A stretch of DNA of 64,000 nt from Alloascoidea hylecoeti (Eukaryota). The DNA lies in contig BCKZ01000009.1 of the NCBI GenBank assembly GCA_001600815.1, forward strand, positions 88,194 to 152,193, read 5' to 3'. The notes below the pieces were generated by a model. The model saw only the letters and a list, made by a program, of their open reading frames with translations. It was not told where the DNA came from and ran no database searches. Positions 4,864 to 29,926 of the stretch are shown piece by piece (the first letter of the stretch is position 1; every line of letters begins with the position of its first letter). Both the position numbers and the translations under genes were made by a program.

Positions 4864-4957
4864 ATGTTCTTACACAAAATACTTAAGATGAAATTAGATT
4901 TCATTTCTAATCTCCATTATGAAATATTTGAAATAATCTTCTTAGATTTTCCACCCA
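4864..4957 (+). pseudogene. 5' fragment of the F-box/WD40 family gene (copy A), cut by a transposon arm
   Basis: ATGTTCTTACACAAAATACTTAAG...TTCTTAGATTTTCCACCC aligns with the start of 21841. Confidence 0.75.
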
Positions 4958-5308
4958 CATTCGACCAGCTTCTCACTTAACTTCGGCCACCTTTCTTTCA
5001 ATATTTCGTCACCTTTATGTCAAAAAAAAAAAAATAGTCAAAACAAGTCTTTCAAAACCATCAAAGGTATTAAGAGAATTCTGAACTTCCATCAACAATA
5101 TTAAGATTCAAAGTTTCGAAAGATCGGTTTTGCTGCCGAATATTTAGTACGAGGTGGCCGAACTTTAGTGAGAAACTGGTCTACACACACATCAGGTGAT
5201 CGAATGTTTAATTTAACATATGGGCGAATATTTACGCATAGATGGACGAATACTTAAACCTACGAGTGGTCGATAATAAAAGACACGATATAGGTATGCA
5301 AAGTACTG
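4958..5308. mobile_element. non-autonomous foldback/MITE-like element with inverted arms made of ~23-bp subrepeats
   Basis: 4961-4992 and 5152-5183 are an imperfect inverted repeat. The right end reads TA|CAGTACTTTGC on the minus strand; the arms carry TATTCGNCCA units. Confidence 0.6.
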
Positions 5309-5758
5309 TATCCAAATCCTTGAGAAAATATATAAGATGTAGAGGTTTTTCGATCTGTGATTTCCTAACTCCAATAGTTTCTAGTAAGAAGTTTCAGTTG
5401 GAAATTATAAAGTTTAAATTTATATGTAGTTGAGCAAAACAAGAAAAGTACCATCGATGCCAGTGATACCTATGAAACATGGTTTAACAGGAAATTCAGT
5501 CTGCAAAACGAAAGCCGGAGTCTTTATTCTTTTCATTGTAGGAAGGTTTATAGCTATAGCTATGTATAGGTAATTAGTCACAAGAGAATCTTTCTTTAAT
5601 CTACTCCGATAATTTACTATTCCATATGGCAAGAAATTCTGTTAAAAAGTGCATTAGTAAAAGAAACACAACTAAACTAAACTGATTAAAAATATGTATT
5701 TTGCATATAAAGCTATCAACTAAAGAAATTACTAAACAAAATATGAGTTTCCAATAGA

Positions 5759-6897
5759 CTATAAATGTTTTAAATATTTTTTCCTTAAATTGTTGGTAAA
5801 ATCATAAATAATAAGATCATCATTCATATTAGAAGCAGCTAGTCTTTTCGAATCAGCACAAATTGAAAAAAAAGGAATTGGATTTAATTTTTTATTTTTA
5901 AATTTTTTAAATAATTTTAAATCATTTAATTTCCAAATCTTAATAGTACAATCATCATCAACCGAAATGACTTTACTATTAATTATTGATAAACTGTGTA
6001 CTCTTTGTTCTGATAAAATATTAATTTTATTTGTTTGTAAATCCACAACCTCTAAGTTGTAGTAGGCACTAACAAATAAATATTGATCGTTTACCCAAAG
6101 CAATTTATAGTATCGAACGGAAATTCTTGGATTATTTGACCAGTTTCAATGTTCAGGGATCTTACACCCCGAGCTTCAGATACCATACAGTATATAATAT
6201 TATTATGAATGCAAGTACGACCAATTCATTCTTCTATACAGTATTGAAATTTAAACTGTAGTTGATGTTTCAAATCATCAAAACTTAATGTCCAAACCCC
6301 GATAGATCCAAAACCACAACATACAATATAATCATCGTATGAAGCACCATTTGAAACTAAATAGTTTCCTAGTGATGATGTAAGACGATCTATTGGTTTA
6401 GAATCTGGTAAATTCCAAATTATACAAGAACCATCCATTAAACCAGAAACCAAATATTCATCATTAATATCCATATTTATAACACCATCGAAATGGAATA
6501 TTTCATCATTCTTTTCTATTAACTCCAAAAATTCAGTTTCTGATATTGATATACCCATTTTTGAAGAATTGTAGTTTAGTTTTCCTAATATTCTTAAACA
6601 TTGAAAGGTTTCATTATCCCAAATTCTTATTATGCAATCTTGTGAACCAGTTATAATCCAGTTTTTAAAACATTTAACACAATCAATATGTGCGGGCAGA
6701 AACACCACTTAATTCACGCTTTGTAAATTTACCATTTTTCCATATATCATCATTATCAACTATATATTCGTTTCCATGATTTAAAAACTCTTCTACAATT
6801 AAGTAAAGTTGTTAGTGGAAAATCTAAGAAGATTAAATTCATGAGGGAGATCGGAAACAGAATCTAATGTCATCCTAAGTTTTTTATGTAACGACAT
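5759..6897 (-). pseudogene. F-box/WD40 pseudogene (copy B)
   Basis: MSLHKKLRMTLDSVSDLP start at 6897, then frameshifts. ORF pieces 6226-6708 and 5759-6103 end in LRKKYLKHL. Confidence 0.9.
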
Positions 6898-7555
6898 ATT
6901 GCAATTAATGTCGTCTATTCGTGGTTATCAATAATGTTAAGGGTGTTTGCAATAATAGTGGGAGGAAAAGAGAATGAGAGGGATTATGTTCAATATTATC
7001 TAGTGACGTGATGGTTAATCTGTGACAGAATTGATAGGTAAGAGGTGTACGAATATGCGTGTTTGTGGGTAATCGTCACTTGACTTTGAGAACCTATATC
7101 ATTCACCAAAAAATATGGATTACCTAAATTTTTTCTATAAATAAACTACTTATCCAAATAGCTATAGATTCTCCTCACAATTTTCTATTCGTTGCTTTGT
7201 TTCTAATTCAAGGTTGAAGGGTTTCTTTTTTATCCTGTTTTTGATTGTATTTTTCTCGAATTCAGCTATCAACACTTTTAAATAACAAGGATAACTACAA
7301 TGGAAATAAGTAGAGTATTATAATATCAGTGATTATATAATCTTATATTATATAAGGTATTATATATTCGCAATTGATTGTTAGTTATTATATATCTTTT
7401 TATAATATTTAGAAATCCATATAAAAAAGTAAGAGCATAACATTAATTGCATTTAATATGCGCACGTAAATAAAGAAGGGGAATAGTTAGTATAATGGTG
7501 TGTGACAGTTTATTCGCCATTCATTATATATCACAAGTTTGACAAATTTGCATTG

Positions 7556-9478
7556 TTACTTAAATTGAGACTTCGAAAATACAGTATCCAAAAATGATTT
7601 TGCAATGGCTTTTGCTTGTTCCTCAATAAAAACAATCGTTGAAGATTTTTTCAAAGAAGGAATAAATAACATTATAAGCCATATCATAACAACAGAGCAC
7701 ATAATACCAATCCATGCATTACTTACGATGTATTTTGTCTCAATATTTTTGTAAGTACTATTTTTAGGAAGATAATACTTTTGTGTACCATTTAAATCAA
7801 TATCTTTAAAATATAATGGCCTGGTTGCAAATCCATAATCCTCAGTACTAATTTCTTTTTCTACAGTTATATTTTTATGTTGATGTAACCATTTATATCT
7901 GATGAAGAGTGGATTATGAACTGGTATACCCCAAAATGTACTTTCACCGTATTTGGCTGTGCAATTCAATAAATTATCAACAGTTAGGCCACGTATATCC
8001 AATACACTAACGTTTAAAAAAAGTATACGCGTATCATTGATGCCGCAACTGAAAAGGTAAAATTGTGTCTCGTCCATTTCGCTATTCGTGTGAGTATATG
8101 AAGTATGATCAACAGCGCTGTATAATCTTGGATCTGAGAGTAAATCTAACCATGGAACGCCATTAACCATACTGTCTTCAAAATCTATTATAGTAGTTGT
8201 ATTTTCGACGTTAACTTCAAGATAATGAAGCATTTCTGTTGTCATTATTCCATCTTCTATGGAACCATTTATTAATCCAACATAGGCAGTTCTTCCCCAG
8301 TCATTTCCTTGTTCACCAACATTAAATGATGTCCCGTAATACATATAATAAATTGACATTTTATAATAATTTTCTTTTGATGGATCATAAGTATCTAACT
8401 GAAAATATTCCTTATCTATTAATAACTGTCGTAGTATACTGTGTTCAGAAGTGAGATGTACGATACCACTCTTTTCCACTCCAGGCTTGAATACGTTTGA
8501 CAATCTTGAAGTGTATGAACCATTGGGGATTGATATGAGCGGTATAGGAACAAAATCAATTGAATTGTCATTAGCTGTAAATATAGTTGAAAATCCACCT
8601 GCGTTAATTAATGAATGATTTTTAAAGTAATACGCTGTTTCCTTCAACTGTTGGATGGAACCAAATGAAATATTATAAAGAGATATGCTTTGATTGTTGA
8701 ATGTTTCTTCTATTTCAAGATGTTTCGCCATTTCAGTAGCATATAAACCCATCATAATGTCCTCACTAGCAAGAAACCCATTTATTCTACTTGGTCGTCC
8801 ATTAGTATGCAAGGGATGTTCATCATAGAAATGTGACCATGCATACATCTGATTTGTGAATTGGGCATTGATAAACGAATAACCGGTTTCATTTACATAA
8901 ATCTTTGAACCATACTCTTCTGATTCTGGATTTGGCAATATGAACACAGGTTCAGTTCCATAGAGAATTGGAACACTAAGAATCCTAGAAGCACCCAAAC
9001 CTAATATGTATAAAATNATTGTAAATATACTTTGAAATGTTCCTAAAGCTATTGGATATGATTTCCATTTATCCTGAACTGAAGTAGTAGAATTTATTGA
9101 AGTCTTATGATTTTCACCTTGCTCTAAATCCAGATTGCCAAGTTCTGTTACATGGCCACTGCTAGTACTAGTAATATTCAAAGACATTGGTTCAATTCTT
9201 AGTTCATCCAATTTTTGATCGCCACTATTAGCTATAGAATTTTCATCGTTAAGCAACCCAGATTCAGTTTCTTTAAATTTCCCATCTCCTCGAGCCCCTC
9301 CAAACATCTCCTTAATAGATTGAAGTAATAAGAGAGAGTTAGCATTATTTAGTACCAACCATAGATTCGCAGCCTTGATACTGTTTGATACTCGATCAGC
9401 AACTATAAGGATTATCTGACCGGAAGCATGACCTACTACAAGTGACAAGATTACTAGTGCGATATGGTCTAAAATCAT
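7556..9478 (-). CDS. 640-aa orphan membrane protein with large N-glycosylation-site-rich domain between TM segments
   Basis: Long intronless ORF with hydrophobic segments at the N-terminus, ~aa 140-170 and ~aa 585-605, and many NxS/T sites. One ambiguous base at 9017. Confidence 0.75.
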   Translation of the reverse strand: MILDHIALVILSLVVGHASGQIILIVADRVSNSIKAANLWLVLNNANSLLLLQSIKEMFGGARGDGKFKETESGLLNDENSIANSGDQKLDELRIEPMSLNITSTSSGHVTELGNLDLEQGENHKTSINSTTSVQDKWKSYPIALGTFQSIFTXILYILGLGASRILSVPILYGTEPVFILPNPESEEYGSKIYVNETGYSFINAQFTNQMYAWSHFYDEHPLHTNGRPSRINGFLASEDIMMGLYATEMAKHLEIEETFNNQSISLYNISFGSIQQLKETAYYFKNHSLINAGGFSTIFTANDNSIDFVPIPLISIPNGSYTSRLSNVFKPGVEKSGIVHLTSEHSILRQLLIDKEYFQLDTYDPSKENYYKMSIYYMYYGTSFNVGEQGNDWGRTAYVGLINGSIEDGIMTTEMLHYLEVNVENTTTIIDFEDSMVNGVPWLDLLSDPRLYSAVDHTSYTHTNSEMDETQFYLFSCGINDTRILFLNVSVLDIRGLTVDNLLNCTAKYGESTFWGIPVHNPLFIRYKWLHQHKNITVEKEISTEDYGFATRPLYFKDIDLNGTQKYYLPKNSTYKNIETKYIVSNAWIGIMCSVVMIWLIMLFIPSLKKSSTIVFIEEQAKAIAKSFLDTVFSKSQFK

Positions 9479-10103
9479 TTCTTTTTTGGGTTTCGATCAG
9501 TAGATTGAATTATACTTGAAGAAGGGGAAACCGTTTTATAGCTTCAAAACATGAGCATAGTCAATATTGATGCTAAGAAAAACAGTGTTTCATAGTCACT
9601 GCCACCGACCATTAGGATCGTATTTGATGATATCCGGATGACTGAATTCCTAAATTGTAACTGCTTCTTATATTTTTATCCGAAATATTTGGATCTCCAT
9701 GCAATGTTTTGAGTTTCTTGGCATTGGTATGGGTATGGAGCACTCATACTCATAGTAAAAAATAATGGTAGCCTATATTATTGCAAATAGGTACTTATAC
9801 ATATTATTCAATTAATCTAGATAAGAAAGTAGATATTTTAGAGAGAGCAGAAATAAAATAAATAAGAATCTATATATATGAATAAATCCCAAGCCGTATA
9901 ATCTTCAAAATGGTTACTAATACATAGTAAATTTACGGGATATTATAATATGGATACCTATGAGTATTACCCCCACCGGACCTACCCAGCTCGATTCTAT
10001 TTGGCAAAATAGGGCGCCTTTCAAGGCCTATACATCGCATATGTTGAGTGTTCACTAAAGAAAATAAAAGAGGTTGTTAAATAAAATACGAATTTTTAAT
10101 CGA

Positions 10104-10270
10104 CTATAAATGTTTTAAATATTTTTTCCTTAAATTATCTGGATAATCAAATACTTTAAATGGTTTTAGATCATTTTAATTCCAAATCTTAATAGTATAA
10201 TAGTCAACTGCATATCCATGAGTAGATGGAAGGAATTTATATTGAAGTGCCTGTTGGAACCAGTTATGCC
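10104..10270 (-). pseudogene. collapsed F-box/WD40 remnant (copy C)
   Basis: Encodes DNLRKKYLKHL* plus pieces of TIKIW and ITGS segments. Confidence 0.7.
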
Positions 10271-10548
10271 AAAATCAGAACGACTTCTGGTGGACTGCCC
10301 GAAAGTGTCAATATCAAACCGAATTAAGAAGACACTGATTTGTGTGTCAGCCAGCAGTGAAATGATAAGAGAACTTCTAAAATATAGTGTGTACTGAAAA
10401 GAAGGCATTCTAATAAATTTAGAAAAGCTATCACAATTTTTATAACCATCTTCTGTAATTTATCTACAGGCCCTACTAATTGTAGCTGAATCATGAATTA
10501 TTCTTCCACGTATTAATTTCCCTATCAAATTGTATCAATTTCCTAATA

Positions 10549-10806
10549 CGGTACTTTGCGTAAATATCGACCACTCGTTGACCTAAATAGTAGCCCAAAA
10601 TTGAAAACCTATTCTCCCATATGTTGGATTAATAATTCAAACACCTGATGTAATAATACTCGACCACTTGATCCAATAGATATTCCTCCACATGATGCAC
10701 AAGCTATTCGACCAACTTTAGTACAAGTTACCCATAAATACTGGGCGACGTCTTCAACCGCATTAAAATTAAATTGGAACCATCCTTTGAGTTAAACATT
10801 CGGCCA
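10549..10806 (+). mobile_element. transposon terminal arm: TA|CGGTACTTTGCG followed by ~11 degenerate TATTCGACCA units
   Basis: Unit ends at 10573, 10597, 10619, 10643, 10666, 10690, 10714, 10734, 10760, 10782, 10806. Homologous to the minus strand of 5133-5308 and to 21128-21314. Confidence 0.6.
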
Positions 10807-11001
10807 TTATTATACTACCATGAATAGAAAATTTCATTTTAGGTTTTACCCAAGTTACTATATATATTTAACCTGTATCTTTAATAAAAAATGTAATAAC
10901 AAGAATGCTACTGTACATGTATACATTTATTTTAAAGTTTCAACAATTCATAAGTAATATCGATATTACTGCATATCGTAGACTTTTTTTGATCATGAAT
11001 T

Positions 11002-13578: not shown

Positions 13579-15030
13579 TGATATCTAAGTTTGAAAACAG
13601 AGAAGTCAGGTATACATATGTATAGGGCCTATATTGAATCCAACTTTTTGGTGGCGCCGGCAAATGAAAATAAAGATATATTTTACACTTTTGTGTAATA
13701 TAATCAGATTCTTCTTGTCCAATAACAATATAGGTACGATATAGGTGAGCTGGAGATTTGAGAAGGATTATCTCTGATCGATTTTCCATGAATTGAAATA
13801 AGGAGCCCGAGGAGAATTAAATGCAAAAATGTTGCAACATGGATCCGCATTATGATCATTAATAATTCTACAGTCAGGGTAACTTACAAACATAATAATA
13901 ATTAACGGTTCAACAATAGGAATATAAGATCTTGATCTTATTTAAATTGTATTTTATATTTTACAATTAAGGTTTATTAAACTTGAAGATGGTGGGCTAA
14001 TTAAATTACGTGCCATCAGTTATAATATAAAAATTAATATATATAAGGGCTATTCCTACGGAAGCCACCCATAGCAGTTCAGTCATGTAAATATTTTCCT
14101 AAATTAAATATGAGGATGGTGAATTAATGGTCACCTAGAGTAAATTAAAGAATATCAAAATTAATTATAAGGTTTTTCTTCCATAATTGATGCATAAACC
14201 TAAAAGTTTTTCGTTTATTGAAACAAGAGACAGTTCGCCAAATTATGTAATTCTTCATTGGTTTATTGTCAAACACACATTATAATTAGCCCATCTTTCA
14301 TATTTGGAGCAGAGTTATTTCTTTTAATGATTCTCTAAATTACACATATTCTGCTACACATCTGTTAATTACCCCTTAGTTGGTGTGGTAGCCCAACAGT
14401 TGCAGTACAACTAATTGCTATAACTTATACTTATAAGGTAAGAGGAATAACAACCGTAATGAGCTCAGAAAATCATCTCTGCTAAATGACGCCAAAATCT
14501 TTAAAACCACCGTACGGTTCCCCTGTATCTCACCTGAGAAATAGGCCTATAGTATAAGCTTATACTATGCTGAAATACGATTGAATAATTCCATAACTAT
14601 TTCAACCTTTTTTTGTACTGATAGATGCACGAGATGTAAAAAATTGTTTGTTTCCAGTATTTTACTCTTAATACGTAAATCATTAATAGAAATGAAAATA
14701 AACTGTAAACATGCGTAGAAACCAGTACTAGTATATCTAACTCTGTGTATCTTTATTTCCCCTACTTTAGGTTTTATTACTCGATCATGAACACTGATTT
14801 ATATATAATGAATATGATTATTGTCAAAACCGGGGTTTGACCTCCAAAAACATTCCTACTGGTTAAAAAAGACAGGTTTATATCTGTATTCAATCCAGAA
14901 GAAGTCATGAAAAGAAGTGTTATAACTAGGAAAAATACAACTGATCCGATTGAAAATACATATATAGTTCATATTGAATACGGAGGGCTCGCCGAAAAGG
15001 TTATTACAAAAAATATAAATTTTCAAAAGA

Positions 15031-16134
15031 TTATAAATATTATAAATATTATTTCCTTAAATTATCAGTAAAATAATAGATTGAAACATCACCATTAGCA
15101 GCTAAAACAGTTACCCTTTTCGAATCAGCATCAATTGGTGAAATATAGATATTTAAATCTCCATTTAGATTTTTTAAATCTTCAGATTCTTGAAATAATT
15201 TAAAACCATTTACATCCCAAATCTTAATAGTATAAATATCAGGAACAGAAATAAATTTATTATTATTTATACATAAACTGTATACTGGTCGATCTGATAA
15301 AGTATTTGTTTTATTTTTTTGTATTTGTGAGTAACAAATAAGTATTGATCATCCACTGCAAAGCAGCAAAGCAGTTCACAGCATCAAATCGAAATTCTTG
15401 GATTATTTGACCAGTTTCAATATTCCAGGATGTAACACCTCCATAAGATTATACTTCACCACATATATCATATATAATACCATTATGAATCCAAATACGG
15501 ACTTGTAAATTAAATTTTAATTGATGTTCCAAATTATCCAGACTTAATATCCAAACCCAAATATATTCACCATTGCAAAATACAATATAATCACTGTATA
15601 GATTGACGCCTAATGAATAAACTGATTGTAGGAATATCAGACGTTCAATTGGTTTAAAATTTAGTAATTCCCAAATTATACAAGAACAATCCAATGAACC
15701 GGAAACCAAGTATTTATCCTGAAAGATTAAGGTTTGGTTTGAAAAGTTTCGTTATCCCAAATTCTTATTGTACAATCTTCTGAACCAGTTATAATCCAGT
15801 TTTTAAAACTTTAACACACCATGTTCGGCCAAAATGACCACTAAATTTATACTTTGTAAATTTACCAGTTAGATTCTAAAAGATAATGTTCTTTGTATAA
15901 TTCATACCATGAATCGGTTTCTGAATCATCATTGTAGTTCCCCCAAGAATTTTTGATCCTGAAACTTTGATTTCCATATATCATCATTATCAGCAATTCG
16001 TTTCCATGATTTAGACACTCTTCTACAATCAGGTAAAGTTGTTGGTGGCAAATCTAAGAAGATGATTTCAGATAATTCTTCAGGAGATCGGGAATAAAAT
16101 CGATTGTAGTCTCAAGAATTTTGTGGAAGGACAT
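15031..16134 (-). pseudogene. F-box/WD40 pseudogene (copy D)
   Basis: Colinear with 21841-23082, with several frameshifts, stops and an internal deletion. Confidence 0.9.
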
Positions 16135-16323
16135 TTTGCAATTGTTTAAATAGTTGTTATTTACTTAAATGTGGTTATAAATATGGCTTCTTTTTAATAA
16201 AAATTGGGAAAAGAAGAGAACTTTACTCCTTGCTTTTGTGACTTTTAGTTAAGGTGGTAGTTGATTTTACCCTATCCAGGGATTGTCGTATCTCAAAGGT
16301 AGTAAAAATAAAAGATTTAATAT

Positions 16324-16408
16324 ACAAGTGTGGCAGTTCATCATTTTTGGTTGAGTTATTGATTATTGAGTTTTCGACTACCGAGACATAATTGTGAGAG
16401 TCTGTGTC
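16324..16408 (+). repeat. ~85-bp dispersed repeat, copy 2
   Basis: Matches 1437-1521. Confidence 0.8.
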
Positions 16409-17499
16409 TTCTTTTGATAGTTGTTGTTCCCTTTTATCTTTTATATAGACTTTCACCTCATGTATATCTCATCATTTGTACGAATTAATAATATAACATG
16501 TGGGCGAATATATAGTGAAATTTAAGAGTCATGTTCGATTCCACACAAAGCACTCAATCCACTGAAACACTTGATGGGACCATCTTCTAGAGTTAATTTA
16601 AGTGTGAGGGGGATTTCCCAAATTATGCCTATTTTTATCATTGGTGATCAAACCATAGAAATAGTACGTGAAAGATGACAAACGCTTCTACTACGTATGT
16701 GTGCATATGTTGATTTTGATTGTTCTATTGATTTTGATGATTGTTCTTTCATTCTTTCGATGCTTATTGTTCTAGATCTATTGATCAATATATTATTATA
16801 TTATTCTTATTATTCTTATTATTACCTTATATATGCATATCGTTATTATCAATTTTATCAATTTTTGTTATAAATAATCATTCTATAAATTTAGTTAGTA
16901 TTATTATTTTTCTTAGAATTCTTGTAGTGACTTTAACCAAAAAAAGTACTACATGCTCGAGCTCTATGAACTCACAGTTTACTCATGGTGTTAAGGTTTA
17001 AGATCGCTATTTTGTTATATTGTTAATTTCGGATTAATTATATAGGGCCTATGTAATTTTTGTGTTATTCAGAACTTCACTCTTATTCAGAATCAGTAAA
17101 ATAAAATAATAGTAAAATGCACGGAAGATGCGTCTGAGCCTCTAAATTTTTAACGGTGATACGTCATGCAGTAAGTTTTTGTGTGACAATGATAACATTA
17201 TACACTAACACGAAAACCCATCATATATGATCATGATCATTATTTTATATAGGAGCATGTAAATAAATTGAGTTTAAGGCCAATAATTATGATTAACCAA
17301 AGCTACGGAAGTCATATTTGCAGTTGACTTTGATATTCGTGACATTTGTTACATCACCATTTCCAATGATCAACTTACGATTGTGATCTATATAAAGCTA
17401 TCATTTCCCCCCTTCTTTGTATTCTTTTCTGTACCAGTATTAATTTGCCAACAAGTTATTACACCTCTTTATTACTATTAACTCTACTTCAAATCAACA

Positions 17500-17858
17500 A
17501 TGTCAGACGGTAAGTTGATATATTTATTCAATTGTTTCTATGTATCAGTTTCTAACAACTTATTATGGATATAGTCGGAAGAAAAAGTTTCAGAACTAAA
17601 GCTAGCGAAGCTATAAAACCAGAATCCGAAAAAAATACATTAGAAAAGATACAAGAAAAGAGAACAAACAATCTTGACAAATTTGCTAAACAAATCCAAC
17701 CAGAAAGTGACAAGGGTACACTTCAAAAAGGTGCGGATAAGGTATCTACATATTCAGAACAACCATCCTATGGTGACCAAGCCAATTCATACTTAGAAGT
17801 AGCTAAAGAAAAAGTTGCTGATGCCGCTGATTATGTTTCAAATTCTCTTAGAAAATAA
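17500..17858 (+). CDS. HSP12: heat shock protein 12; exons 17500-17509 and 17575-17858
   Basis: Spliced MSDVGRKSF..KASEAIKPESEK...AKEKVADAADYVS; upstream TATATAAA. Confidence 0.9.
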
Positions 17859-18067
17859 ACAGTCTACAATTATAGGTTTAAATATAAAACAATAATTATA
17901 CACTTCTGATTATAATTAAAGATGTATATGCAAATATATATGGGTAATAAATAAATTTGTTCAATTTTAAAGGTTTTATATAAAACTTTAATGCCTTTTC
18001 AGTGAGATATCTCCCTTAACGCCGAATGAGTGTTTATGGTCGAGTTTACCATACTTTTGTATATGAT

Positions 18068-18413
18068 TTAAGTATAACATTTACGCGCGGTACGGATTAT
18101 ACTATTTATATTGTAGTTAATCCACCAACCCAGCTTGGATGTTTGATTTATTAATAGAATATGTATAATTCAGCTCGATTAAAATGCTAATACCATTTTG
18201 AGGTTGTCTCATCAATCAAGTACTCCAAGTTTTAGATTCTTTTGTGTAAGTATAACATTTACGCACTGCGCTAATTATAGCATTCATGATGTTGTTGTCA
18301 ATCCACGAACGCAGGTTGTATGTTTGCTTTCTCAATTGGATATGTACAATTCAGCCTGGATTGAAATGCTATTACTATTTTTAGGTTGTTTGATCACTTA
18401 AATATTCTAAGTT
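18068..18413. repeat. diverged tandem duplication, unit ~179 bp
   Basis: TAAGTATAACATTTACGC...AATCCAC...AATTCAGC...AAATGCTA...AGGTTGT...AAGTTT occurs twice in tandem. Confidence 0.75.
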
Positions 18414-18771
18414 TGCTATGTCTTCTTATTTAGATCTATGAGGTTATCGATGTTATTTATTTATTATTATTACTACAGTATAATATAATAGAGTTAGCGC
18501 ACAAGATACATGCATAATAGCTGATGCAGATGAAGTAAACTTCAAGCTAATTTCAAGGGAAAGAAAACCTATCATTTATTAATATGCTGTAATATTATTG
18601 CAGTACGTAGATAAAACCTGTAATTGTATTAATGTGAATTTTACAATTAATTGCTATCTTGTCGTAAGTATGAATATTAATCAGCTATAGATTTCTACTC
18701 ATCTTCTTACATATTCGATCACAAAAGCAAAACTTCAAGCACCATAAGAGTTTAAGTAATAATCAACACCA

Positions 18772-19629: not shown

Positions 19630-20299
19630 TATATTATCCCATAATTATTTTCGCGCGTTGCACGTATCTACTATGGTTCGGTTCCAAATAACATGTTCCT
19701 ACATATTTAATATTCTCTTTTGTATTTTTGTTGTGATGTTTAAGATTTTCTATTAACTAACGTATTAAGCATCATTAATTCCAATCTCACATTTTTCTGT
19801 TATCTTTAGAGAATTGTGAGTAATCAAGGCTTTGGAAAGTCCTTTAGATGTTTGAATTCCACTTCGAATAGTTTTTAAGGGATATTAGAGCACTATATGT
19901 ACCCTTGATCTGATTTATCCAGACGTGTAATAATATCATCAGATATACCATCATTATTTCCATGAATTTTTAGCTTCTTTGACCGTACTTAAAAAATTTC
20001 TTTTACAATCTATGGAGATTTCAATTCTCCGGTGGATTCTCCATATCAAACAATTTTTTGTTTTTCTTTATTTTTTTTCCTTTCATTTCTTTGGAGGCGG
20101 TATTTGATGAGATTTATTACAAGCTTCTGGTCATAGATATTTTTCAACTCTTCTTTGGTGAATCAAAGTTGGAAACGTCTGATACATTAAGCGCAGTTAA
20201 AATGATGACTATAGTACTAGCTGTGTACCTATTATTAATATTATTATATATATTTCAATTGAAATTTCTTTAAGCAACAATATCTATTTTCAATTTTAA

Positions 20300-20922
20300 A
20301 TAAATTATAAAAATATTTTTTTCCTAATTTTTTAGTAAAATCATAAATAACATCACCATTCATAGTAAAAGCAATTAGCTTCTTTGAATCAACATCAACT
20401 GAAATAGGATATAATTTCGATTGCCTACGTTTCAAATTCTTAAATTCTTTAATTACTTTTTAAATCATCCACACGGTAGAATCAGGATTAACAGTAATGA
20501 TTTTATTATTAACTTTAAATCCTGGAACTGGTCCTTTATCTTCTGCTTCAGTTGATAAAAAATTTATTTCGTTTGTTTGTAAATCCAAAACCGTTACCTT
20601 GTGATCGTCACTAACAAATAAATATTGATCATTGTATAAATTGACGCCTATTAAAAAATTTGAATGTGGTAATATCAGACGATCTATTGGTTTAAAATGT
20701 GGTAATTCCCATATTATACAAGAACCATCCAGTGAACCATAAATTAAATATTTATCATTAATATCCAAGTGACACACTACTGAAATGAAATATTTTCTCA
20801 TTCTTTTCTGTTAGTACCAATATTTTTGTTTCTGGTATGATCCTTCTTGAAAGATTATGACTTACTTTTCCTAATATTCTTAAACATAGAAGATTTTCAT
20901 TATCCCAAATTCTTATTGTACT
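20300..20922 (-). pseudogene. 5'-truncated, internally deleted F-box/WD40 pseudogene (copy E)
   Basis: CIIWELPHFKPIDRLILPHSNFLIGV is identical to 21841, joined directly to DQYLF. Confidence 0.85.
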
Positions 20923-21127
20923 CTCGCGATCGTGTGTTCATAGTCTAACCTCCCTTGGAGATAGCTCTTCTAAAGATTTCCACAAGACAACCCCTTATCC
21001 GGCTTAATACACTATCAATCATAAATTTCGTAATAACAGCTGTGAAGAAATGAAAGGGTTACGGATTTTACTCCCCTCTTTTTTTATTACGGTAAATGCG
21101 CTGGATCTAGGTAGAGGTATGGATGTA

Positions 21128-21314
21128 CAGTGTTTTGTTAATTTCGACCACTTGTTGACCTATATTAGCACATTATTTAGACACCATTCGCCGATACTTT
21201 AAATTAATAATTCCACTACATGATGTAATGATATTTCACCAACAATCTCATTTACTTTCGCCACTCTTCATTAAATATTCAGTCACCTTCATGTCCAATA
21301 CCAAATTATGGCCA
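21128..21314 (+). mobile_element. transposon terminal arm TA|CAGTG with ~22-23-bp subrepeats
   Basis: Units end near 21150, 21172, 21194, 21218, 21241, 21263, 21285. Spacers align with the 10549 and 4958 arms. Confidence 0.55.
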
Positions 21315-21840
21315 ACACCGTAGCCACCTTCTGTATGCTTTGGAATCAAACCATATGAGACCATATTGTCATTTTTCTCAGAGATTATACTTAACAGGAA
21401 GTTTATTTACTTACCAGATTACAATTTGATTGGTGATTTACCTGAAAACGTCATAAAGCCTTAGCCACTTGCTTCAAATGCTCCGTGTATTACGGAAGGA
21501 CCAGGTGATCGAAGGATTAAAATCAATTTCATGGAGAAAAAAGCACATTAGTACGACTACGAGAAGAACTACTATAGTAGATTACCTGAAGAAAGTAATG
21601 CCTAATTATCTACCTGATGGGCTTAAAAAGTCTTAGTTTTATATTTTTTTGTTGATTTATTTTTAAATATTTAGAAAATTTAGAAAAATGTCATTTTCGG
21701 TTTGCGAAGTAACTCAGACTCCCGAAGATGCCCCACCACACAGAAATGGGCATTTATAGTGAAGTTCATAACTCTTTAATTCTCTTTTCCTCCCCTTGTT
21801 ATAATATTATTGACAACCATGGTACAACATTAATCATAAT

Positions 21841-23082
21841 ATGTCCTTACATAAAAATCTTGAGACGACAATCGATTCTGTTTCTGATCTCCCTTATGAA
21901 ATATCTCAAATGGTTTTCTTAGATTTGCCACCAACAACTTTACTTGATTGTAGAAGAGTTTCTAAATCATGGAAACACATATCGGATAATGATAATATAT
22001 GGAGGTCAAAGTTTAAAGATGAAAAATCATGGGAATACTATAATGATGATTCAGAAACTGATTCTTGGTTAGAATTATACAAAGTACGTTATCTATTGGA
22101 ATTAAATTGGAAAAATGGTAAATTTACAAAGCATCGATTAAGTGGTCATTCTGGCCAAACGTGGTGTGTTAAATTTTTTAAAAACTGGATTATAACTGGT
22201 TCGGATGATTGGACAATAAGAATATGGGATAATGAAACTTTTCAATGTTTAAGAGTATTAGGAAAGCTAAACCATCTTTCGGGAATAAGGTTATCAGAAA
22301 CTGAATCTTTAAAGTTGATAGAAAAGAATGGTGAAATATTTCATTTCGATGCTGTTAAACATGTGGATATTAATGATAAATATTTGGTTTCTGGTTCATT
22401 GGATGGTTCTTGTATAATATGGGAATTACCACATTTTAAACCAATAGATCGTCTGATATTACCACATTCAAATTTTTTAATAGGCGTCGATTTATACAAT
22501 GATTATATTGTATATTGTAATGGTGAACATATTGGGGTTTGGAAATCAAGTCTTGATAATTTGGAACATCAAACAAAGTTTAAGTTACAACTATGTATAG
22601 ATGAAAAACGAATTGATCGAATTTGCATTCATAATGGTATTATATATGGTACAGAATTTGGCTATATAAAATCCTGGAATATTGATACTGGTCAAATAAT
22701 ACAAGAATTTCGATTTGATGATGTGAATTTCTTTGCAGTGGATGATCAATACTTATTTTTTAGCAAATATTACGAATTAAGGGTTTTGAATTTAAAAACA
22801 AATAAAACAAATATTTTATTAGATCAAGGAGTAGAGAGTTTAAGTATAAATAGGAATAAACTCATTTCGGTTGATTATTCTTATATTGTTAGGATTTGGA
22901 ATTTAAATGATATAAAATTAATTACAGAATATCAAGATAGAGAAATTTTAACTGCAGATTTATATTTTTATTCTTTACCAATTGATGCTGATTCAAAAAG
23001 GCTAGCTGTTTTAAGTACTCATGGTGTTTTGATTTATGAATTTACTGATAATTTAAAAAAAAAATATTTAAAATATTTATAA
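21841..23082 (+). CDS. intact F-box/WD40 protein, beta-TrCP/FWD-1/Pof11-like (copy F), 413 aa
   Basis: F-box LPYEISQMVFLDL..CRRVSKSW, linker LELNWKNGKF, WD repeats GH..WCVKF..IITGSDDWTIRIWD and YLVSGSLDGSCIIW. Confidence 0.9.
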   Translation: MSLHKNLETTIDSVSDLPYEISQMVFLDLPPTTLLDCRRVSKSWKHISDNDNIWRSKFKDEKSWEYYNDDSETDSWLELYKVRYLLELNWKNGKFTKHRLSGHSGQTWCVKFFKNWIITGSDDWTIRIWDNETFQCLRVLGKLNHLSGIRLSETESLKLIEKNGEIFHFDAVKHVDINDKYLVSGSLDGSCIIWELPHFKPIDRLILPHSNFLIGVDLYNDYIVYCNGEHIGVWKSSLDNLEHQTKFKLQLCIDEKRIDRICIHNGIIYGTEFGYIKSWNIDTGQIIQEFRFDDVNFFAVDDQYLFFSKYYELRVLNLKTNKTNILLDQGVESLSINRNKLISVDYSYIVRIWNLNDIKLITEYQDREILTADLYFYSLPIDADSKRLAVLSTHGVLIYEFTDNLKKKYLKYL

Positions 23083-23865
23083 TCTACCAAAAATTTATAT
23101 ATGATAATTTTTAACAACCTCTTCAGAGGGTCCTCCGTATTCAGGATATGTATTTTCAATCGATTCAGTTGTGCTTTTTCTAACACTTCATTTCAAGAGT
23201 TCTTCTGAATTGAGTAGTGATATAAACCTGAATTTTTAAAACCAGCAAGTAGGTATGTTTTTGGAGCAGGTTTCCACACTTATCATATACTTGTAGTTCC
23301 AATAAGTCAGCTATTCGAACCACGGAATTTTTAGCCATGGCAAAGTAAATTATTGGAATAGTCCTTCTTGTGTAACTTGAAGAGAAAATTTCCTGTATAA
23401 CCTAACAATGAGCATTTATCAATTAATTTGTTTAATTTTAAAAAATGTTGAAGTTGTTGTGTTTATCATGGGCGGTTGTTATCAAATTCATCCCACACAA
23501 AAAAATGTGGTATGAAACATACTTATAAGATCTTACGAAGTTCGAGCTTCATTTTGAGAATCATCTAATCTCATTATTATTATACAGGCCTACAGTTTAT
23601 CTTCATGATTATTGATGTGAAACTACTTTAGCAATTTCGATATCTGTCATTCTCAATGTTAAATAAATAGAGTAATGAAAGCAACAATATAGTTCTGTAT
23701 TAAACAACAGTAAGAGATTGGTTGTCTCAAAACGGAGAGAAACCAATTTTTATATACTAAACTAAATCTATAAAATATAAATACATAGATTCTTTTAATG
23801 TAGATATAAATTAACGGAGTGAAAGGAAAAATAAACAAGTAGAGATCACTCACAGACACGTAGAT

Positions 23866-24900
23866 TTTTGTTATCACCAATATCTACTTTTTCTCCCTGC
23901 AAGACCTAAGTATCTCCTTAACATATTATTACTTTGAAGGTTGAAAACCTAAAACACTTATACGACAGCTCTACGCGGCTTAATTCCCACCAACTAATTA
24001 CTTAATACTTTAATTCTTATTATATCTCACATTACGACTCAAGTAATTAAAATGGTGGCAGCAGCATATCAAAGATAATTAATATCTGAGATGCAATAAC
24101 ACCCGACCCATGAGTTTAGATCAACTGGCTGCTTTTTGATGTTGTAATTGATTACGCTTACAGAGTTAAGATTTAAGACTTATATCCTTTATATATACAC
24201 GCGCGATTAAATGAGAACTACTCTACCTCCCGATCATAATTAACCGGAGCTGGACTATCTCTACCCCCCAGGACTTGTGCTGAGTTGTTAGAATGATTTC
24301 CTAAAGTTAATTGTGCTCTTATCTGGTTAGAGTCTGAAACTGAACCACTTATAGTCATAGTATCCCCACCAGTGTCGTTCCGATGGACCAAGTGATTTAG
24401 AAAGTCGTCTACCTCCCGATCATAATTAACCGGAGCTAGACCATTTCTATCCTCCAGGACTTGTGCTGAGTTGTTAGAATGATTTCCTAAAGTTAATTGT
24501 GCTCTTATCTGGTTAGAGTCTGAAACTGAACCACTTATAGTCATAGTATCCCCACCAGTGTCGTTCCGATGGACCAAGTGATTTAGAAAGTCGTCTACCT
24601 CCCGATCATAATTAACCGGAGCTAGACCATTTCTATCCTCCAGGACTTGTGCTGAGTTGTTAGAATGATTTCCTAAAGTTAATTGTGCTCTTATCTGGTT
24701 AGAGTCTGAAACTGAACCACTTATAGTCATAGTATCCCCACCAGTGTCGTTCCGATGGACCAAGTGATTTAGAAAGTCGTCTACCTCCCGATCATAATTA
24801 ACCGGAGCTAGACCATTTCTATCCTCCAGGACTTGTGCTGAGTTGTTAAAAGCCATAGTAAAATCAAATACTTTGTGTTGTAGCTACATGAGGAGAGAAT
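23866..24900 (-). repeat. dispersed duplication (repeat gene plus flanks), inverted copy at ~63090-63919
   Basis: The ~350-bp 3' flank is nearly identical; ~40 bp of 5' flank is similar. Confidence 0.9.
24218..24856 (-). CDS. 212-aa protein of three identical 62-aa repeats plus a 23-aa partial repeat
   Basis: 186-bp unit (TCTACCTCCCGATCATAATT at 24222, 24408, 24594, 24780). A TATA-like AGTATAAATA lies upstream; paralog at 63131. Confidence 0.75.
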   Translation of the reverse strand: MAFNNSAQVLEDRNGLAPVNYDREVDDFLNHLVHRNDTGGDTMTISGSVSDSNQIRAQLTLGNHSNNSAQVLEDRNGLAPVNYDREVDDFLNHLVHRNDTGGDTMTISGSVSDSNQIRAQLTLGNHSNNSAQVLEDRNGLAPVNYDREVDDFLNHLVHRNDTGGDTMTISGSVSDSNQIRAQLTLGNHSNNSAQVLGGRDSPAPVNYDREVE

Positions 24901-24962
24901 TCTGAATCTCTCCTTATATTTATACTTTATATTAAGGTTGGTAATGAATTTTGTGAAGCAGT

Positions 24963-25007
24963 AAAAAAAGAAAAAAAGAAAAAAAGAAAAAAGAAAAAAG
25001 AAAAGAG
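24963..25007 (+). repeat. (A)nG polypurine microsatellite
   Basis: AAAAAAAG repeated ~6 times. Confidence 0.8.
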
Positions 25008-25206
25008 TGTTTTCATGAACTTTTCCTCACATATTATTAAAATATAATTAGATGTATTAAATATAGCATAGCTGAATATATGTATAATAAGTATAAATGA
25101 GAGAAATAATATATAGTTCGTAAGTCAACTTCGATATTTCTTAGAATCACAAAGCCGCATAAGCGATTATGCTAAGAATATTTTAATTACCAGTCATCTA
25201 CCCCCC

Positions 25207-25343
25207 TGTCAGGTTCTCAGGTATCAATTGTAACTTAAAGTATAGCTACCCGGCTATGAAAGCCTATATAAATAGTAAGTAGTTTCCTCTTTTTATAAGA
25301 TAAGTTATTTTCACTTCAGCTAAATTATCGCTATATCCTTACA
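25207..25343 (+). mobile_element. solo LTR, 137 bp, with 5-bp target-site duplication CCCCC
   Basis: CCCCC|TGTCAGG...CCTTACA|CCCCC; identical to the reverse complement of 161-297. Confidence 0.9.
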
Positions 25344-25488
25344 CCCCCTATATATATGGATTTGATCGACCAACAACTTCATCATACCAACCTACAAACC
25401 ATCAAAAGCATCATCCAAAAACACATCATCCCACAAAATATTAACCAATAAACCATCAACCTACAATAGCAAGAAGGAATCAGATACA

Positions 25489-26853
25489 ATGAATCTCTCT
25501 GAATTCGAAACTATGTTACTCAGGTTCGAAGAGAGATTTGAGAAGAAGATGAATGTCTTGATTGACTGTAAGGTGAGCAACAAATTGGAAGAACTAAGAT
25601 TGGATACCGAACAACAGTTCGCCAACTTAAGGTCTCAATTAACATTGAAAACAGAACAAGCAAATCTCAAGTCAACAACAGAGGATTCAGTTCAACAAGA
25701 TTCTGTTTCCGTTCTCCCTGTTGAAATATTAGAAATAATCTTTTCGAATTTGCCACCAAAACCTTTACTTACGTGTGGAAGGGTATCTAAATCTTGGAAA
25801 CAAATAGTTGATAGAATACGGCTTAAAATAGGCAAAGAACGTCGTCTTTTAGAACAAAATTGGGAAAATGATAAATTTACAAAGCATAAATTAAATGGTC
25901 ATGATGTCCAAACATTTTGTGTTAAATTTTATGATAACTTGATTTTTACTGGTTCAGGTGATTGTACAATAAAAATTTGGGATGCTGAAACTTATCAATG
26001 TTTAAAAGTATTAGGAAAACCAAACGTTAAACTTTCAAGTAAGACTTTAGCGATGTCAGAAACTGAATTATTGGAGTTAATGGAAAAGAATGATGAAATA
26101 TTTCATTTCAGCAGTGTTCTGAATATTGCTATTAATGATAAATATTTGGTTTCTTCTTCATTGGATCGTTCTTGTATAATTTGGGAGTTACAAGATTTTA
26201 AACCAATTGAACGTCTGACATTACCACAATCCGATGTATACGGTATTAAAAACATCGCATTATACAATGATTATATTGTATGTTGTAATGATAAATATAT
26301 TGGGGTTTGGAAATCAAGTCTTGATAATTCAGAACAACAACTAAAATTTAATTTACAGCACCGTAAAAGAGATTACAGGATCGATCATATTTGCATTCAT
26401 GATGGTATTATTTATGGTAAAGTATATGCAGGCATTAGATCCTGGAATATTGAAACTGGTGAATTAATCGAAACATTAACATTGTATGATGTGAATTCCT
26501 TTGCAGTAAATGATCAATACTTATTTTTTAGTGACGAATACTACACACTAAAGGCTATGAATTTACAAAAATATTCTATAAGTATTTTATCATATCAACG
26601 AGCATTCAATTTATCTATAATTAATAATAAACTCTTTACGGTTGATGATCAGAATATTAATATTTGGAATTCAAATGATCTAAATTTATTTAAAGAATTT
26701 AAAGATAAAGATATCTCAATTCCAGATCTAGATTTTTGTGTTTTACCAATTGATGCTGATTCGAAAAAGGTAGCTGTTTTATCTACACATGGTGATGTTC
26801 TTATTTTTGATTTTACTGATAATTTAAGGAAAAAATATTTAAAGCATTTATAA
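25489..26853 (+). CDS. intact F-box/WD40 protein with extra ~70-aa coiled-coil-like N-terminus (copy G), 454 aa
   Basis: Family sequence begins at DSVSVLPVEIL; the N-terminal extension is absent from the other copies. Confidence 0.9.
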   Translation: MNLSEFETMLLRFEERFEKKMNVLIDCKVSNKLEELRLDTEQQFANLRSQLTLKTEQANLKSTTEDSVQQDSVSVLPVEILEIIFSNLPPKPLLTCGRVSKSWKQIVDRIRLKIGKERRLLEQNWENDKFTKHKLNGHDVQTFCVKFYDNLIFTGSGDCTIKIWDAETYQCLKVLGKPNVKLSSKTLAMSETELLELMEKNDEIFHFSSVLNIAINDKYLVSSSLDRSCIIWELQDFKPIERLTLPQSDVYGIKNIALYNDYIVCCNDKYIGVWKSSLDNSEQQLKFNLQHRKRDYRIDHICIHDGIIYGKVYAGIRSWNIETGELIETLTLYDVNSFAVNDQYLFFSDEYYTLKAMNLQKYSISILSYQRAFNLSIINNKLFTVDDQNINIWNSNDLNLFKEFKDKDISIPDLDFCVLPIDADSKKVAVLSTHGDVLIFDFTDNLRKKYLKHL

Positions 26854-27994
26854 TCTATTGAAAATTTTGACAACGTCTTCGGAGTCCTCTACATTCAGTA
26901 TATGTATTTTCAATCGTGTTTTTTCTAACACCTTATTTCAAGATTCCTTCTGAATTGAATTCTGATATAAACCTGTCTTTTTAGAGAGTATGTTTTTGGA
27001 AGTGATTTTGACACTTATCATATAGTTTCAATAAGCCAGCTTTTTGAACACAGAATTTCTAGCTAAGGGGAAGTAAATTTTCCGAGTCTTACTTCTTGGA
27101 AGATTATCTTGTATCTCACCTTAGATGAGAACCTTTTATATAACTTACAGGTTCTAAATAATTTTGCTAAATTTGAAAAAAATGTTTTAGTTTCTGTGTT
27201 TATTATGGGATTTGCGGGCGGTTGTTATCGTACTCACACAAAAATAATGATTGGACGATATGGGCTTTCAAGATTTCAGTTGATAATCATAAATCTATCA
27301 AAATATCACTTTTCAAAGGTTTCTGCTTCTTCACAAAGCATTATTTTGTTGAAGGTTTCCCATTATGTATCTAAATCACCGTTTTTAATTCCTTCTCTTT
27401 ACTTATGCTTATAGTAATATTGGTTTGGCATTTGAATATTTTAGAAGTTGAAAAACCGATTATATTAACTACCTATAAAAGGTAGTAAAATAGACATTTA
27501 CAGATTTCAATTTCACATTCTGAACAATAGTTGCTATTTAATCTAGTTAGCATAGTAAAAAAGGAACTAGTTCAAAGGAATATGAACTAAGCGCTCATAG
27601 GCACGTAAGATGAAACGAGTGAATAACTTGTTAAGGGAATAAAATGAAGCAAGTTAATAACTCACTAATAAGATGGGATGAGAAAGTGAGTCGTGTTTAT
27701 TAAACTATATGATTCACTGTGTGAAAGCTATAGTATAGTTACACAGTAAAAATTAAGACAATCATCTTGATAATATTTCATGAAAATGCAACACTATATA
27801 CTCAAAGTTTTAATCTTCGATCTCCATTGAAATATCTGGTAAAGCCTCTTCTGTAGATCAGATATATGGTATGATAACCCTTCCATTCTTGTTTAAATTG
27901 ATTTATCAATTCAAAATAATATATCTTGTGCCGTTACAATTTGATTTATCGATCTTTCACCTATAAAAATAAAATTCAATTGTGTTTGTGGACC

Positions 27995-28360
27995 AGAGAG
28001 GGTAAAATTTTACCAAGCACTGAAGAAATATTAAGTAAGGTCGCAGATGATCCTGATAGTTTCTCTGATATAGGGGATGAAAAAACTTGACTCATTTTTA
28101 TTAGAAGATGAAGTCGAACATAAAAAAATTTATTGGTATAATAATAATCAAGAATATCTACTTGAAGAAGAACGGAAAATTTTACTTATTGAGTCTCAGC
28201 AAAAAGCTGAAACATACAAACCACCAAAGAAAAAGAAAAAGGTAGCAAAGAAGGAAGAAGATGATGATATATCCAGTACTCCAGAAGGTATGAAAAATAT
28301 GTTACAAAAAAGGCCATTCAGTAAGAAGATTAACTAAGAAGTTTTAGATAATATACTGAA
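27995..28360 (+). pseudogene. BRF1: fragment of the TFIIIB subunit Brf1 C-terminal TBP-binding region
   Basis: LPSTEEILSKVADDPDSFSDIGDE/LDSFLL...W...NQEYLLEEERK...KNMLQKRPFSKKIN*EVL. One frameshift, and TAA where Brf1 has the Y of SKKINY. Confidence 0.8.
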
Positions 28361-28819
28361 CAAGCAGATGAACACATCAATATAATGATAAATAGCTAAA
28401 GATATGCAAAAAACAGTTCGATAAATTTAGAACCAGAATATATATATGAGCTGTAAGTTGAGATACGCTCAACAAATATAAGTAAACCATCAATAAAAAT
28501 GAAAATATTCTAGTTCTGAATTTATCAAACTGTTTTTTGCACTATACATATGCACAGTTTGTAGAAGTTTTCTCATCTGCAGCATTTCAATCCTTGCTTG
28601 ATGCACAAATCACAAATATTAATCACAGCCATTATTGAATATAATCCGGGATCCCAGAATATGAATCAACTATAGATTTTACCTACAAAAGCATAGATTT
28701 TTACACATTAAAATTCATCACTCCCTGTTTCATCCCATTTCTTATTGCAAAAAACCCATAATACTAGTATTATTGGTAACCACAATTAAGTAAACAACGA
28801 CCATTCAAACTATTTCAAT

Positions 28820-29146
28820 ATGTCCTTACACAAAAATCTTAAGATGACATTAGATTCTGTTTCTGATCTCTCTTTTGAATTATTTCAAATAATCTTCTCA
28901 AATTTGTCAACAACTTCTTTACTTAATTGTAGAAGAGTCTCTAAATCATGTAGCTGAAAACGATGATATATGGAAATCAAAGTTTCAAGTTCAAAAATCT
29001 TGGAAATACCACAATGATGATTCAGAAACAGATTCGTGGTATGAATTATCCAAAGAACATTATCTTTTAGAATCTAACTGGAAAAATGGAAAATTTACAA
29101 AGCATAGATTAAGTGGTCATTCTGGCCGAACGTGGTGTGTTAAATT
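28820..29146 (+). pseudogene. F-box/WD40 pseudogene lacking most of the WD40 domain (copy H)
   Basis: MSLHKNLKMTLDSVSD... with a frameshift, ending after GHSGRTWCVKF. It is joined to the family's distal 3' flank (~29230-29340 matches ~23462-23565). Confidence 0.9.
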
Positions 29147-29926
29147 CTGAATAAGATTAATAAATTACTTGCTACCAAGAATACGGATAGTATCTCTTAA
29201 TATGTTTAAAAAATGTTTTCGTTTCTGTAATTATCATGATCATGGTATGTTCGGTTATCGCATTTGCCCTACACAAAAAAAAAGTATGAACAATTCTTAT
29301 ATGGACTTTCCAACTCAGGTTTATATTTTGAGAATTTTCTTCTTACTTAATTTTTTTCATTTTTATTGATAGTGTACTTCTGCTGAATGTATCCCAACTC
29401 ACAAATTCATAAATATGAATATGAGGCGAAATATATATCTTACAAATGACAAAATATATTGCGGAATAATGCGTTACCTGAACGACTCATTATTGATTTT
29501 CAAAGTGCCGAACACAGACTCAGATATAACGAAAGCCCCTCTACAATATGAAATTCTGAGTGGAAAAACTTTAATTACCTTTGTTATATCCATTTTTAGA
29601 TATCTTACTATTAATGTTTAGTTATGAATTTACTATTTAAACGTAAGCATTTGCTACTTAACATAAATCATTAATATAAATCATTATTAATTATAAAGAG
29701 TTTAATAGTCTTGTATAGGCTAATGCAAATCCCAAAATTAAAGATATTTGTGATAGAGAATATTATACTATTTGAGCTGGTGCTATCGCTAAAGTTTTAA
29801 GTAAAATATGAAAAAACTATCTAAGAGACGAATGTGAGAATATTTTAAGACTAATCAAGGAGAGTGATCATAGGGTTAGATAATTCTAGACCACAATTGT
29901 AAAGAGCAATACAATAATACTCTAAT

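Follow-up and report, generated by a model that had tools for sequence, protein, structure and literature searches.

A beta-TrCP-derived family of F-box/WD40 genes with a diversified propeller top face in the yeast Alloascoidea hylecoeti

The genome of the budding yeast Alloascoidea hylecoeti contains a large family of genes for F-box/WD40 proteins that descend from a beta-TrCP-type substrate receptor of SCF (Skp1-Cul1-F-box) ubiquitin ligases, and eight copies lie in the 64,000-nucleotide stretch analysed here (the window: contig BCKZ01000009.1 of assembly GCA_001600815.1, positions 88,194 to 152,193 of the forward strand). As far as can be read from the sequences, a single parent gene founded the family via a 5'-truncated duplicate, the F-box, linker and propeller scaffold of the open copies are under purifying selection, and the phosphodegron pocket of the parent has been lost, with a minority of sites on the top face of the propeller changing faster than neutral. 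We favour, as marginally probable, the reading that these genes form a diversified repertoire of SCF receptors whose live copies have new and differing substrates among changing, conflict-related targets. A first-pass annotation of the window had described a birth-and-death cluster and suspected a lineage-specific defence or antidote family. Copies indeed turned out to be plentiful outside the window, their evolution is not neutral, and the family does not coincide with one already characterised.

Using tBLASTn and self-BLAST of the window, we recovered all eight of the homologous stretches that had been claimed, on both strands within ~25 kb (4864-29149), with copy-to-copy nucleotide identities of 66-85% and E values far under chance. 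Two of them are open frames, three are long but broken, and the other three are short remnants (32 to 110 codons). Copy 1 (4864-4959, + strand) is a 5' stub of 32 codons that stops within the F-box (53% identity over 32 amino acids (aa) in tBLASTn; 82% nucleotide identity to copy 8), copy 3 (~10104-10214, - strand) is a 3' remnant with the C-terminal tail only, and copy 8 (28820-29149, + strand) consists of the 5' 110 codons, i.e., F-box, linker and the start of blade 1, with one frameshift. Almost full-length pseudogenes are copy 2 (5759-6897, - strand), with several frameshifts, one stop and a linker deletion, and copy 4 (15031-16134, - strand), which has frameshifts and several stops and is nearest to copies 8 and 6. 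The third long pseudogene, copy 5 (20298-20937, - strand), lacks the 5' third with F-box and linker, carries an internal deletion and is possibly a mosaic; it is 83% identical to copy 6 in its mid-part and 66% at its 3' end. The open frames, copy 6 (A below; 21841-23082, + strand, 413 aa, F-box plus seven-blade WD40) and copy 7 (B below; 25489-26853, + strand, 454 aa), both score above the Pfam cut-off for F-box (PF00646, PF12937) and WD40. The first-pass count of two intact and six broken genes thus holds for the reading frames, but "intact" overstates B. Its F-box is kept, but B reads as degenerate or remodelled because it has lost ~24 residues and thus the greater part of the linker, the most conserved segment of the family, begins with an unrelated 70-aa N-terminus (just one weak match elsewhere in the genome), shows a ratio of nonsynonymous to synonymous rate (omega) on its terminal branch of 0.67 that is indistinguishable from 1 (p = 0.25), and has an element resembling a solo long terminal repeat (LTR) 145 bp upstream.

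The copies in the window represent one local branch within a family that spans the genome: copies 2, 4, 8, A and B form a single clade with two open copies immediately to the left of the window (100/99). Searching the own genome (24.8 Mb on 136 contigs) for the family yielded 111 matches, with 101 of 349 candidates scored; merged, they correspond to no fewer than 93 loci spread over 23 contigs. The birth-and-death character of the family is supported. Nearly half of the loci (46/93) have a neighbouring family locus within 10 kb, and about one third are open frames. A side observation concerns a pair of broken copies next to each other at C5:1043095 and 1044738, whose match statistics are identical; they reflect either a tandem duplication of recent date or an artefact of assembly. 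For the analyses below we used 32 nearly full-length open frames of at least 388 aa from fetched loci, excluding shorter frames. The C-terminus is altered in three of the 32, and pairwise protein identity has a median of 55% and a maximum of 78%. The family seems to be lineage-specific, as had been proposed: all 18 database proteins with more than 49% identity correspond to own loci at 99-100% (16 + 2), and among 17 short fragments from a profile-free search, ten have a fetched locus as counterpart at no less than 97% identity and the other seven may be own unfetched copies or belong to a sister species. The best reading of these matches is a family restricted to the species or genus. A protein atlas search returned generic F-box/WD40 clusters only. 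Translation under an alternative CUG code was considered and rejected, with CTG falling in leucine columns 15 of 17 times, i.e., the standard code holds.

The parent, the genome's only gene of the fungal beta-TrCP type, lies still intact on contig C4 (P0016, 517 aa, a single open reading frame (ORF)); among the family members it is clearly the best match to a budding-yeast orthologue, with 264 bits compared to 167 for the next. In a quick tree of 68 rows, it is sister to all 32 copies with a Shimodaira-Hasegawa-like approximate likelihood ratio test (SH-aLRT) support of 100. A more careful tree with 30 of these rows, including 4 of the 32 copies, places parent and copies within a fungal beta-TrCP-type clade (100/99) that is sister to animal beta-TrCP (99/97). 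Descent from this group is thus supported, and an origin from Met30 or Cdc4 was rejected; these two share the same architecture, but the genome's own versions of both fall outside the family clade, and the family does not group with known Met30 or Cdc4/Fbw7 either. Within the fungi, parent and copies sit among budding-yeast orthologues (94/86), though the exact place is soft owing to a long stem (1.28) and to a composition test that the rows do not pass. Horizontal transfer was rejected on the same tree (94/86; inner node 83/76), with the caveat of the long branch, and because the parent is equally AT-rich (26% GC, compared to 28% in the family). Named orthologues come from Sugiyamaella, Nadsonia, Trichomonascus, Magnusiomyces, Lipomyces, Myxozyma, Tuber and Peziza, and relatives in Pezizomycotina are labelled "beta-TrCP" and "F-box and WD-40 domain protein 1/11" in databases. 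The names FWD-1 and Pof11 were not among the database labels returned, so that this link rests on those labels and on the description of Neurospora FWD-1 as a Slimb homolog (PMC10931572).

The copies begin at an internal methionine of the parent, and the last ~55 bp of their common 5' flank match the parent's N-terminal coding sequence; downstream, 5 of 28 copies show a match to the parent's 3' flank from +88 to +191. The founder was therefore a 5'-truncated duplicate. Since the parent is itself a single ORF, the absence of introns from the copies is uninformative about the mechanism, and the founder may have arisen via DNA or via RNA. Later births were often local and at the DNA level, which is apparent from neighbours that were duplicated together with a copy. 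A block with an orphan membrane-like gene (7372-10026, - strand) is 80% identical in nucleotides to C9:9820-12436, and a block containing HSP12 (16543-17951, + strand) is 78-85% identical to C9:14633-15762. Both paralogous blocks lie ~85-90 kb away, where they flank another broken family copy on either side, so that 640-aa orphan gene, HSP12 block and family copy form a segmental duplication at the DNA level, at least locally. The orphan ORF itself (7556-9478, - strand, 640 aa) has a 74% identical paralogue at C9:10386-12275, contains the only N of the window (9017) and gave no Pfam match.

The first-pass annotation had gone further and proposed duplication as a cassette with common flanks. 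Its ~70-90 bp of 5' flank in most copies is confined to the five of eight copies that retain their 5' end, and the match extends 3-90 bp upstream according to pair in local alignment or ~110 bp in the family alignment (21767-21840, + strand, for copy 6). The 3' flank of copy 6 (23083-23561, + strand) does reach the claimed ~480 bp, but unbroken similarity to copy 7 ends at 23370, after 288 bp; what follows are blocks in 23421-23561 shared with copies 7 and 8, which between A and B extend to +425 and +480. An apparent long conserved 3' element of the family was rejected as being simply the next tandem copy. On reading the flanks, we found no shared end of the duplicated unit, with similarity fading at varying distances; the ends of a cassette may have decayed because the copies are old. 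Duplication at the DNA level is supported, at least locally; a mobile cassette with defined ends did not become apparent.

What has become of the ancestral receptor is evident from its substrate pocket. An AlphaFold2 model (27-row alignment, predicted local distance difference test (pLDDT) score of 86) shows F-box helices, a linker helix and 28 strands in seven groups, and its best Foldseek matches are FBXW11 and beta-TrCP complexes (6wnx, 6m90-6m93; E = 7e-24 to FBXW11). Ten beta-TrCP residues hold the phosphodegron (Y271, R285, S309, S325, N394, R431, G432, S448, R474 and Y488; PMC13097077). The parent keeps nine of them and all 22 fungal orthologues keep eight or nine, with position 448 being N in the parent and in 21 of the 22; all 32 copies keep only zero to four, and A and B one each. 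R431 and G432 lie within a deletion in 28 and 30 of the 32 copies, respectively, though these counts depend on the alignment. The copies are thus descendants of the beta-TrCP-type group by sequence but not functional members of it. By contrast, the F-box core (P18, E20, L34, C37, S41 and W44) is invariant in 32/32 copies. A model of the own Skp1 with copy B scored 0.74 compared to 0.01 for the best control, its runs sharing at least 80% of contacts at a partner pLDDT of at least 78. The mark used was reached by 51 of 78 solved pairs and 2 of 108 mismatched pairs; since similar complexes have already been solved, the score expresses likeness to these only.

Codon models fitted to the 32 open frames argue against neutral evolution. 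The one-ratio model M0 reached a log-likelihood of -24391 (IQ-TREE: -24398) with omega 0.44. Across four settings (two column sets x two frequency models), twice the log-likelihood difference was 273-364 for M2a vs M1a and 157-218 for M8 vs M8a, with 10-16% of sites in a selected class of omega 2.0-3.2. The signal stayed at 183 when multi-base changes were allowed, and reached 26, 68 and 157 in three segments that were each given their own tree. To locate these sites, we assigned site classes from the strands of the model and the usual WD40 topology, in which we take the d-a and b-c loops to be the top face. As the first-pass annotation had suggested mapping them, sites with P > 0.95 concentrate in these top loops (30/69), with none of 48 in the bottom loops (Fisher p = 8e-9); elsewhere they number 9/164 in strands, 1/49 in the F-box, 0/35 in the linker, 5/26 in the insert, 4/11 in the N-terminus and 0/13 in the tail. 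The sites with P > 0.95 include five of the eight pocket positions that can be aligned. Omega by class is lowest in the linker (0.09), followed by bottom loops (0.24), F-box (0.36) and strands (0.46). Most terminal branches (25 of 32) have a scaffold omega under 1 at p < 0.01, with a median terminal synonymous divergence (dS) of 0.27. Copy A has a terminal omega of 0.36 (p = 0.0014), and none of 2000 neutral simulations stayed open at its dS of 0.21.

Several results weigh against the view of a repertoire under diversifying selection. The codon models are self-written; they keep relative branch lengths fixed and use naive posteriors. A null model extended by site-rate variation has a better fit than positive selection on its own; under such variation the signal drops to 37 and the selected class shrinks from 10% of sites to 3%, with omega 4.6 (328 strict columns only). 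The trees of the three segments disagree, which indicates conversion or noise, and an approximately unbiased (AU) test, whose tree set includes trees fitted to the same data, only hints at incongruence. Pooled top loops have an omega of 0.90 that does not differ from 1 (p = 0.27), and relaxation thus contributes to the divergence of the top face. The burst looks old because the closest two open copies are just 78% identical as proteins and the tree is star-like; the data thus do not show explosive turnover that is still ongoing, although young copies could be hidden by a collapsed assembly. Duplication is also not confined to the beta-TrCP-derived family: two further F-box gene types are present twice each (L086/L096, which we take to be Ufo1-like, and L089/L090, presumably Grr1-like). 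One paper reports that, among yeast orders, gene families are largest in one whose genomes measure 24 Mb (10.1101/2024.06.05.597512); our guess is that this genome belongs to it, and if so, duplication would be common there anyway. The words F-box, WD40, ubiquitin and Skp1 are absent from the main text of that paper, and its supplementary tables may list the family.

These points feed an account by drift with relaxed specificity that we consider unlikely, though deserving of attention. Copies would pile up in duplication-prone, repeat-rich regions and would still have to fold and bind Skp1, or do harm if misfolded, with a top face that is merely unconstrained and no target that matters. This would accommodate the pooled omega of the top loops, the strong fall of the signal under site-rate variation, the roughly two thirds of loci that are broken or partial, the repeats and solo LTRs among the copies, and the location of 57% of 75 loci in the outer quarter of each scaffold half. 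It does less well with an omega above 1 that is significant in every test and with a synonymous rate that is not raised at the selected sites (6.3 vs 6.1 elsewhere, a grouping that is circular). Purifying selection on most terminal branches is, moreover, hard to square with genes that have no job.

Genes for the core of the ligase are multiplied as well. Skp1 is represented by five open frames and one broken one (L118-L123: C14:584767-588446, C19:128301 and C6:1131395), with four loci in a tandem cluster on C14. The open frames are 45-97% identical, comprising one 97% pair and three frames at 48-65% to that pair; SKP1 is single in humans and yeast and numbers 20 and 23 in two nematodes (PMC12680543). 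Cul1-type sequence occurs at L125, L126, L128 and L129 (C7:786415, C7:792056, C99 and C1:477520). The C1 locus is a full, divergent frame with human CUL1 as best match and 73% identity to the sequence on the short contig C99, and C7 carries two tandem Cul1 N-terminal parts that run into stretches of N and both overlap C99 over 31 identical residues. On the simplest reading of these sequences, there are probably three Cul1 genes. A whole-genome duplication was rejected as source of the extra Skp1 and Cul1 genes: a control search for the proteasome core gave 21 matches at 14 loci, and 14 is the usual number of proteasome core genes. A RING family search for Rbx1 returned 22 matches, which gave no Rbx1 count. 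Several short frames of the RING-H2 type (120-137 aa) lie at C3:956726, 957644 and 980224, close together, and at C11:399215, and the genome also holds several F-box proteins with unrecognised C-termini.

An excess of Skp1 and Cul1 genes could offset titration, and an invariant F-box alongside a lost pocket is what one might expect of decoys that titrate Skp1-Cul1 or a parasite inhibitor of the parent receptor and ubiquitinate nothing. We regard this as very improbable, as the whole seven-blade propeller is under purifying selection and decoys would have no need of 30 different top faces.

The favoured reading of a receptor repertoire runs as follows. A 5'-truncated duplicate of the C4 gene gave rise to the at least 93 loci, mostly by local DNA duplication, and purifying selection has held F-box, linker and scaffold of the open copies while the pocket was lost and the top face diversified faster than neutral at a minority of sites. 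Building on this, each live copy would dock on Skp1-Cul1, encoded by five and probably three genes, and would send a different protein, rather than the phosphodegron substrates of the parent, to the proteasome. Going a step further, these targets may change over time, as would be expected of viral or transposon proteins and of those encoded by selfish elements or rival microbes; a copy might die once its target is gone. A more specific version, which we hold as tentative and on balance doubtful, is an intracellular defence of the kind proposed for nematodes that evolved independently, with dozens of beta-TrCP-derived receptors directed at proteins of viruses, retrotransposons and rival microbes and served by dedicated, divergent Skp1 and Cul1 paralogues.

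The copies might instead degrade different host proteins, e.g., in development, sporulation or a specialised life in wood, so that the top face would reflect neofunctionalisation rather than conflict. An old, star-like radiation is compatible with such endogenous regulation, as are the F-box expansions of mushroom-forming fungi in a developmental context (PMC10282164) and the occurrence of the window in a wood-decay metagenome (share 0.86). We nevertheless judge it rather improbable: copies die at a high rate and the same sites have changed again and again among the 32, which fits recurrent turnover better than a specialisation that happened once.

The first-pass annotation had also raised the idea of antidotes, i.e., that the copies belong to linked toxin-antidote or meiotic-drive modules like KSS-1 and KSS-2 of Caenorhabditis tropicalis, F-box proteins that set a precedent (PMC12680543). 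Rapid diversification and clustering would suit such a role, but the idea is weakened because the neighbourhoods of the copies have no recurring gene family. The 96 stretches fetched (639 kb, overlapping) contain 122 ORFs of at least 120 aa that lie outside the family, and these formed no group of more than two members, a search that small, spliced or unlinked toxins would escape. There is no conserved upstream motif either; the candidate for a shared promoter motif, a 16-mer, was dropped because it occurs in just 4 of 32 copies within two mismatches. An antidote role thus appears highly unlikely.

The window also carries repeats, several of them among the copies. The solo-LTR-like element upstream of copy 7 (25207-25343) looks young: it is 137 bp long with TG...CA ends, an internal TATA-like box and the 5-bp direct repeat CCCCC on both sides, and it ends 145 bp 5' of the ATG of copy 7. 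It has 22 matches in the genome, many at 99-100% and several at contig ends, and a second copy in the window (161-297), which suggests a recently active retrotransposon. An old dispersed repeat of ~110 bp (10560-10666, also 5189-5275 and 21137-21241), each time near a truncated copy, has many weak matches across the genome. A 90-bp repeat (1434-1521 and 16321-16407, 91% identity) occurs beside other family copies as well. The window further contains an inverted duplicate (23866-24899 and 63089-63920, 88% identity) with only these two full copies in the genome, the former enclosing a 212-aa ORF (24218-24856, - strand) of 62-residue tandem repeats without Pfam match above the cut-off. It also contains a 170-bp tandem pair (18069-18414, 77%) and a 37-bp inverted repeat (28405-28541, 92%), and no tRNA genes were found in it.

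The family resembles several known systems without being identical to any. Like beta-TrCP (FBXW1A/FBXW11) and its fungal orthologues, the copies have an F-box, a helical linker and seven WD40 blades, but they lack the N-terminal extension and the phosphodegron pocket, their WD signature motifs have mostly eroded beyond blade 2, and there are dozens of copies. The F-box expansions of nematodes share birth-and-death clusters, a conserved F-box and positive selection on the substrate domain (PMC8120010, PMC12680543, 10.1101/2024.09.11.612556) as well as multiplied Skp1 (skr) and Cul1-type (cul-6) genes. However, the substrate domains there are FTH/FBA or solenoid rather than WD40 and the genes are an order of magnitude more numerous, whereas the family described here has one traceable parent, belongs to a unicellular or filamentous fungus and is known from genes alone. 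The mouse Fbxw12 cluster likewise consists of lineage-specific F-box/WD40 genes whose residues under selection lie in the substrate channel of the WD40 domain (PMC3984280), but it is one cluster of intron-bearing mammalian genes as opposed to many intronless clusters on 23 contigs with an independent beta-TrCP-type origin. Mushroom-forming fungi, too, have expanded fast-evolving F-box genes; these are Basidiomycetes, the context is fruiting-body development, and the accessible part of the report names neither a beta-TrCP origin nor a selection test (PMC10282164). We found no report of such a repertoire in a budding yeast in literature listings and abstract openings, in which most subscription papers are lacking. 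The pattern is known from nematodes, plants and mouse and, as a count, from mushroom-forming fungi.

Budding yeasts are described as having ~20 F-box genes, as does S. cerevisiae with its ~20 F-box proteins, and one SKP1 (PMC7991009, PMC12680543); the present genome, by contrast, shows 129 matches in a Pfam F-box-like search (150 scored of 173 candidates) and five open Skp1 frames. For the idea that fast-evolving F-box families destroy foreign proteins, few substrates have been identified even in worms and plants. With one parent of known pocket, some 30 intronless genes of 1.3 kb and a yeast SCF context, every copy should be expressible in laboratory yeast and its substrates could be found by proteomics. 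The family would then be a natural library of how a propeller that reads phosphodegrons gets re-aimed.

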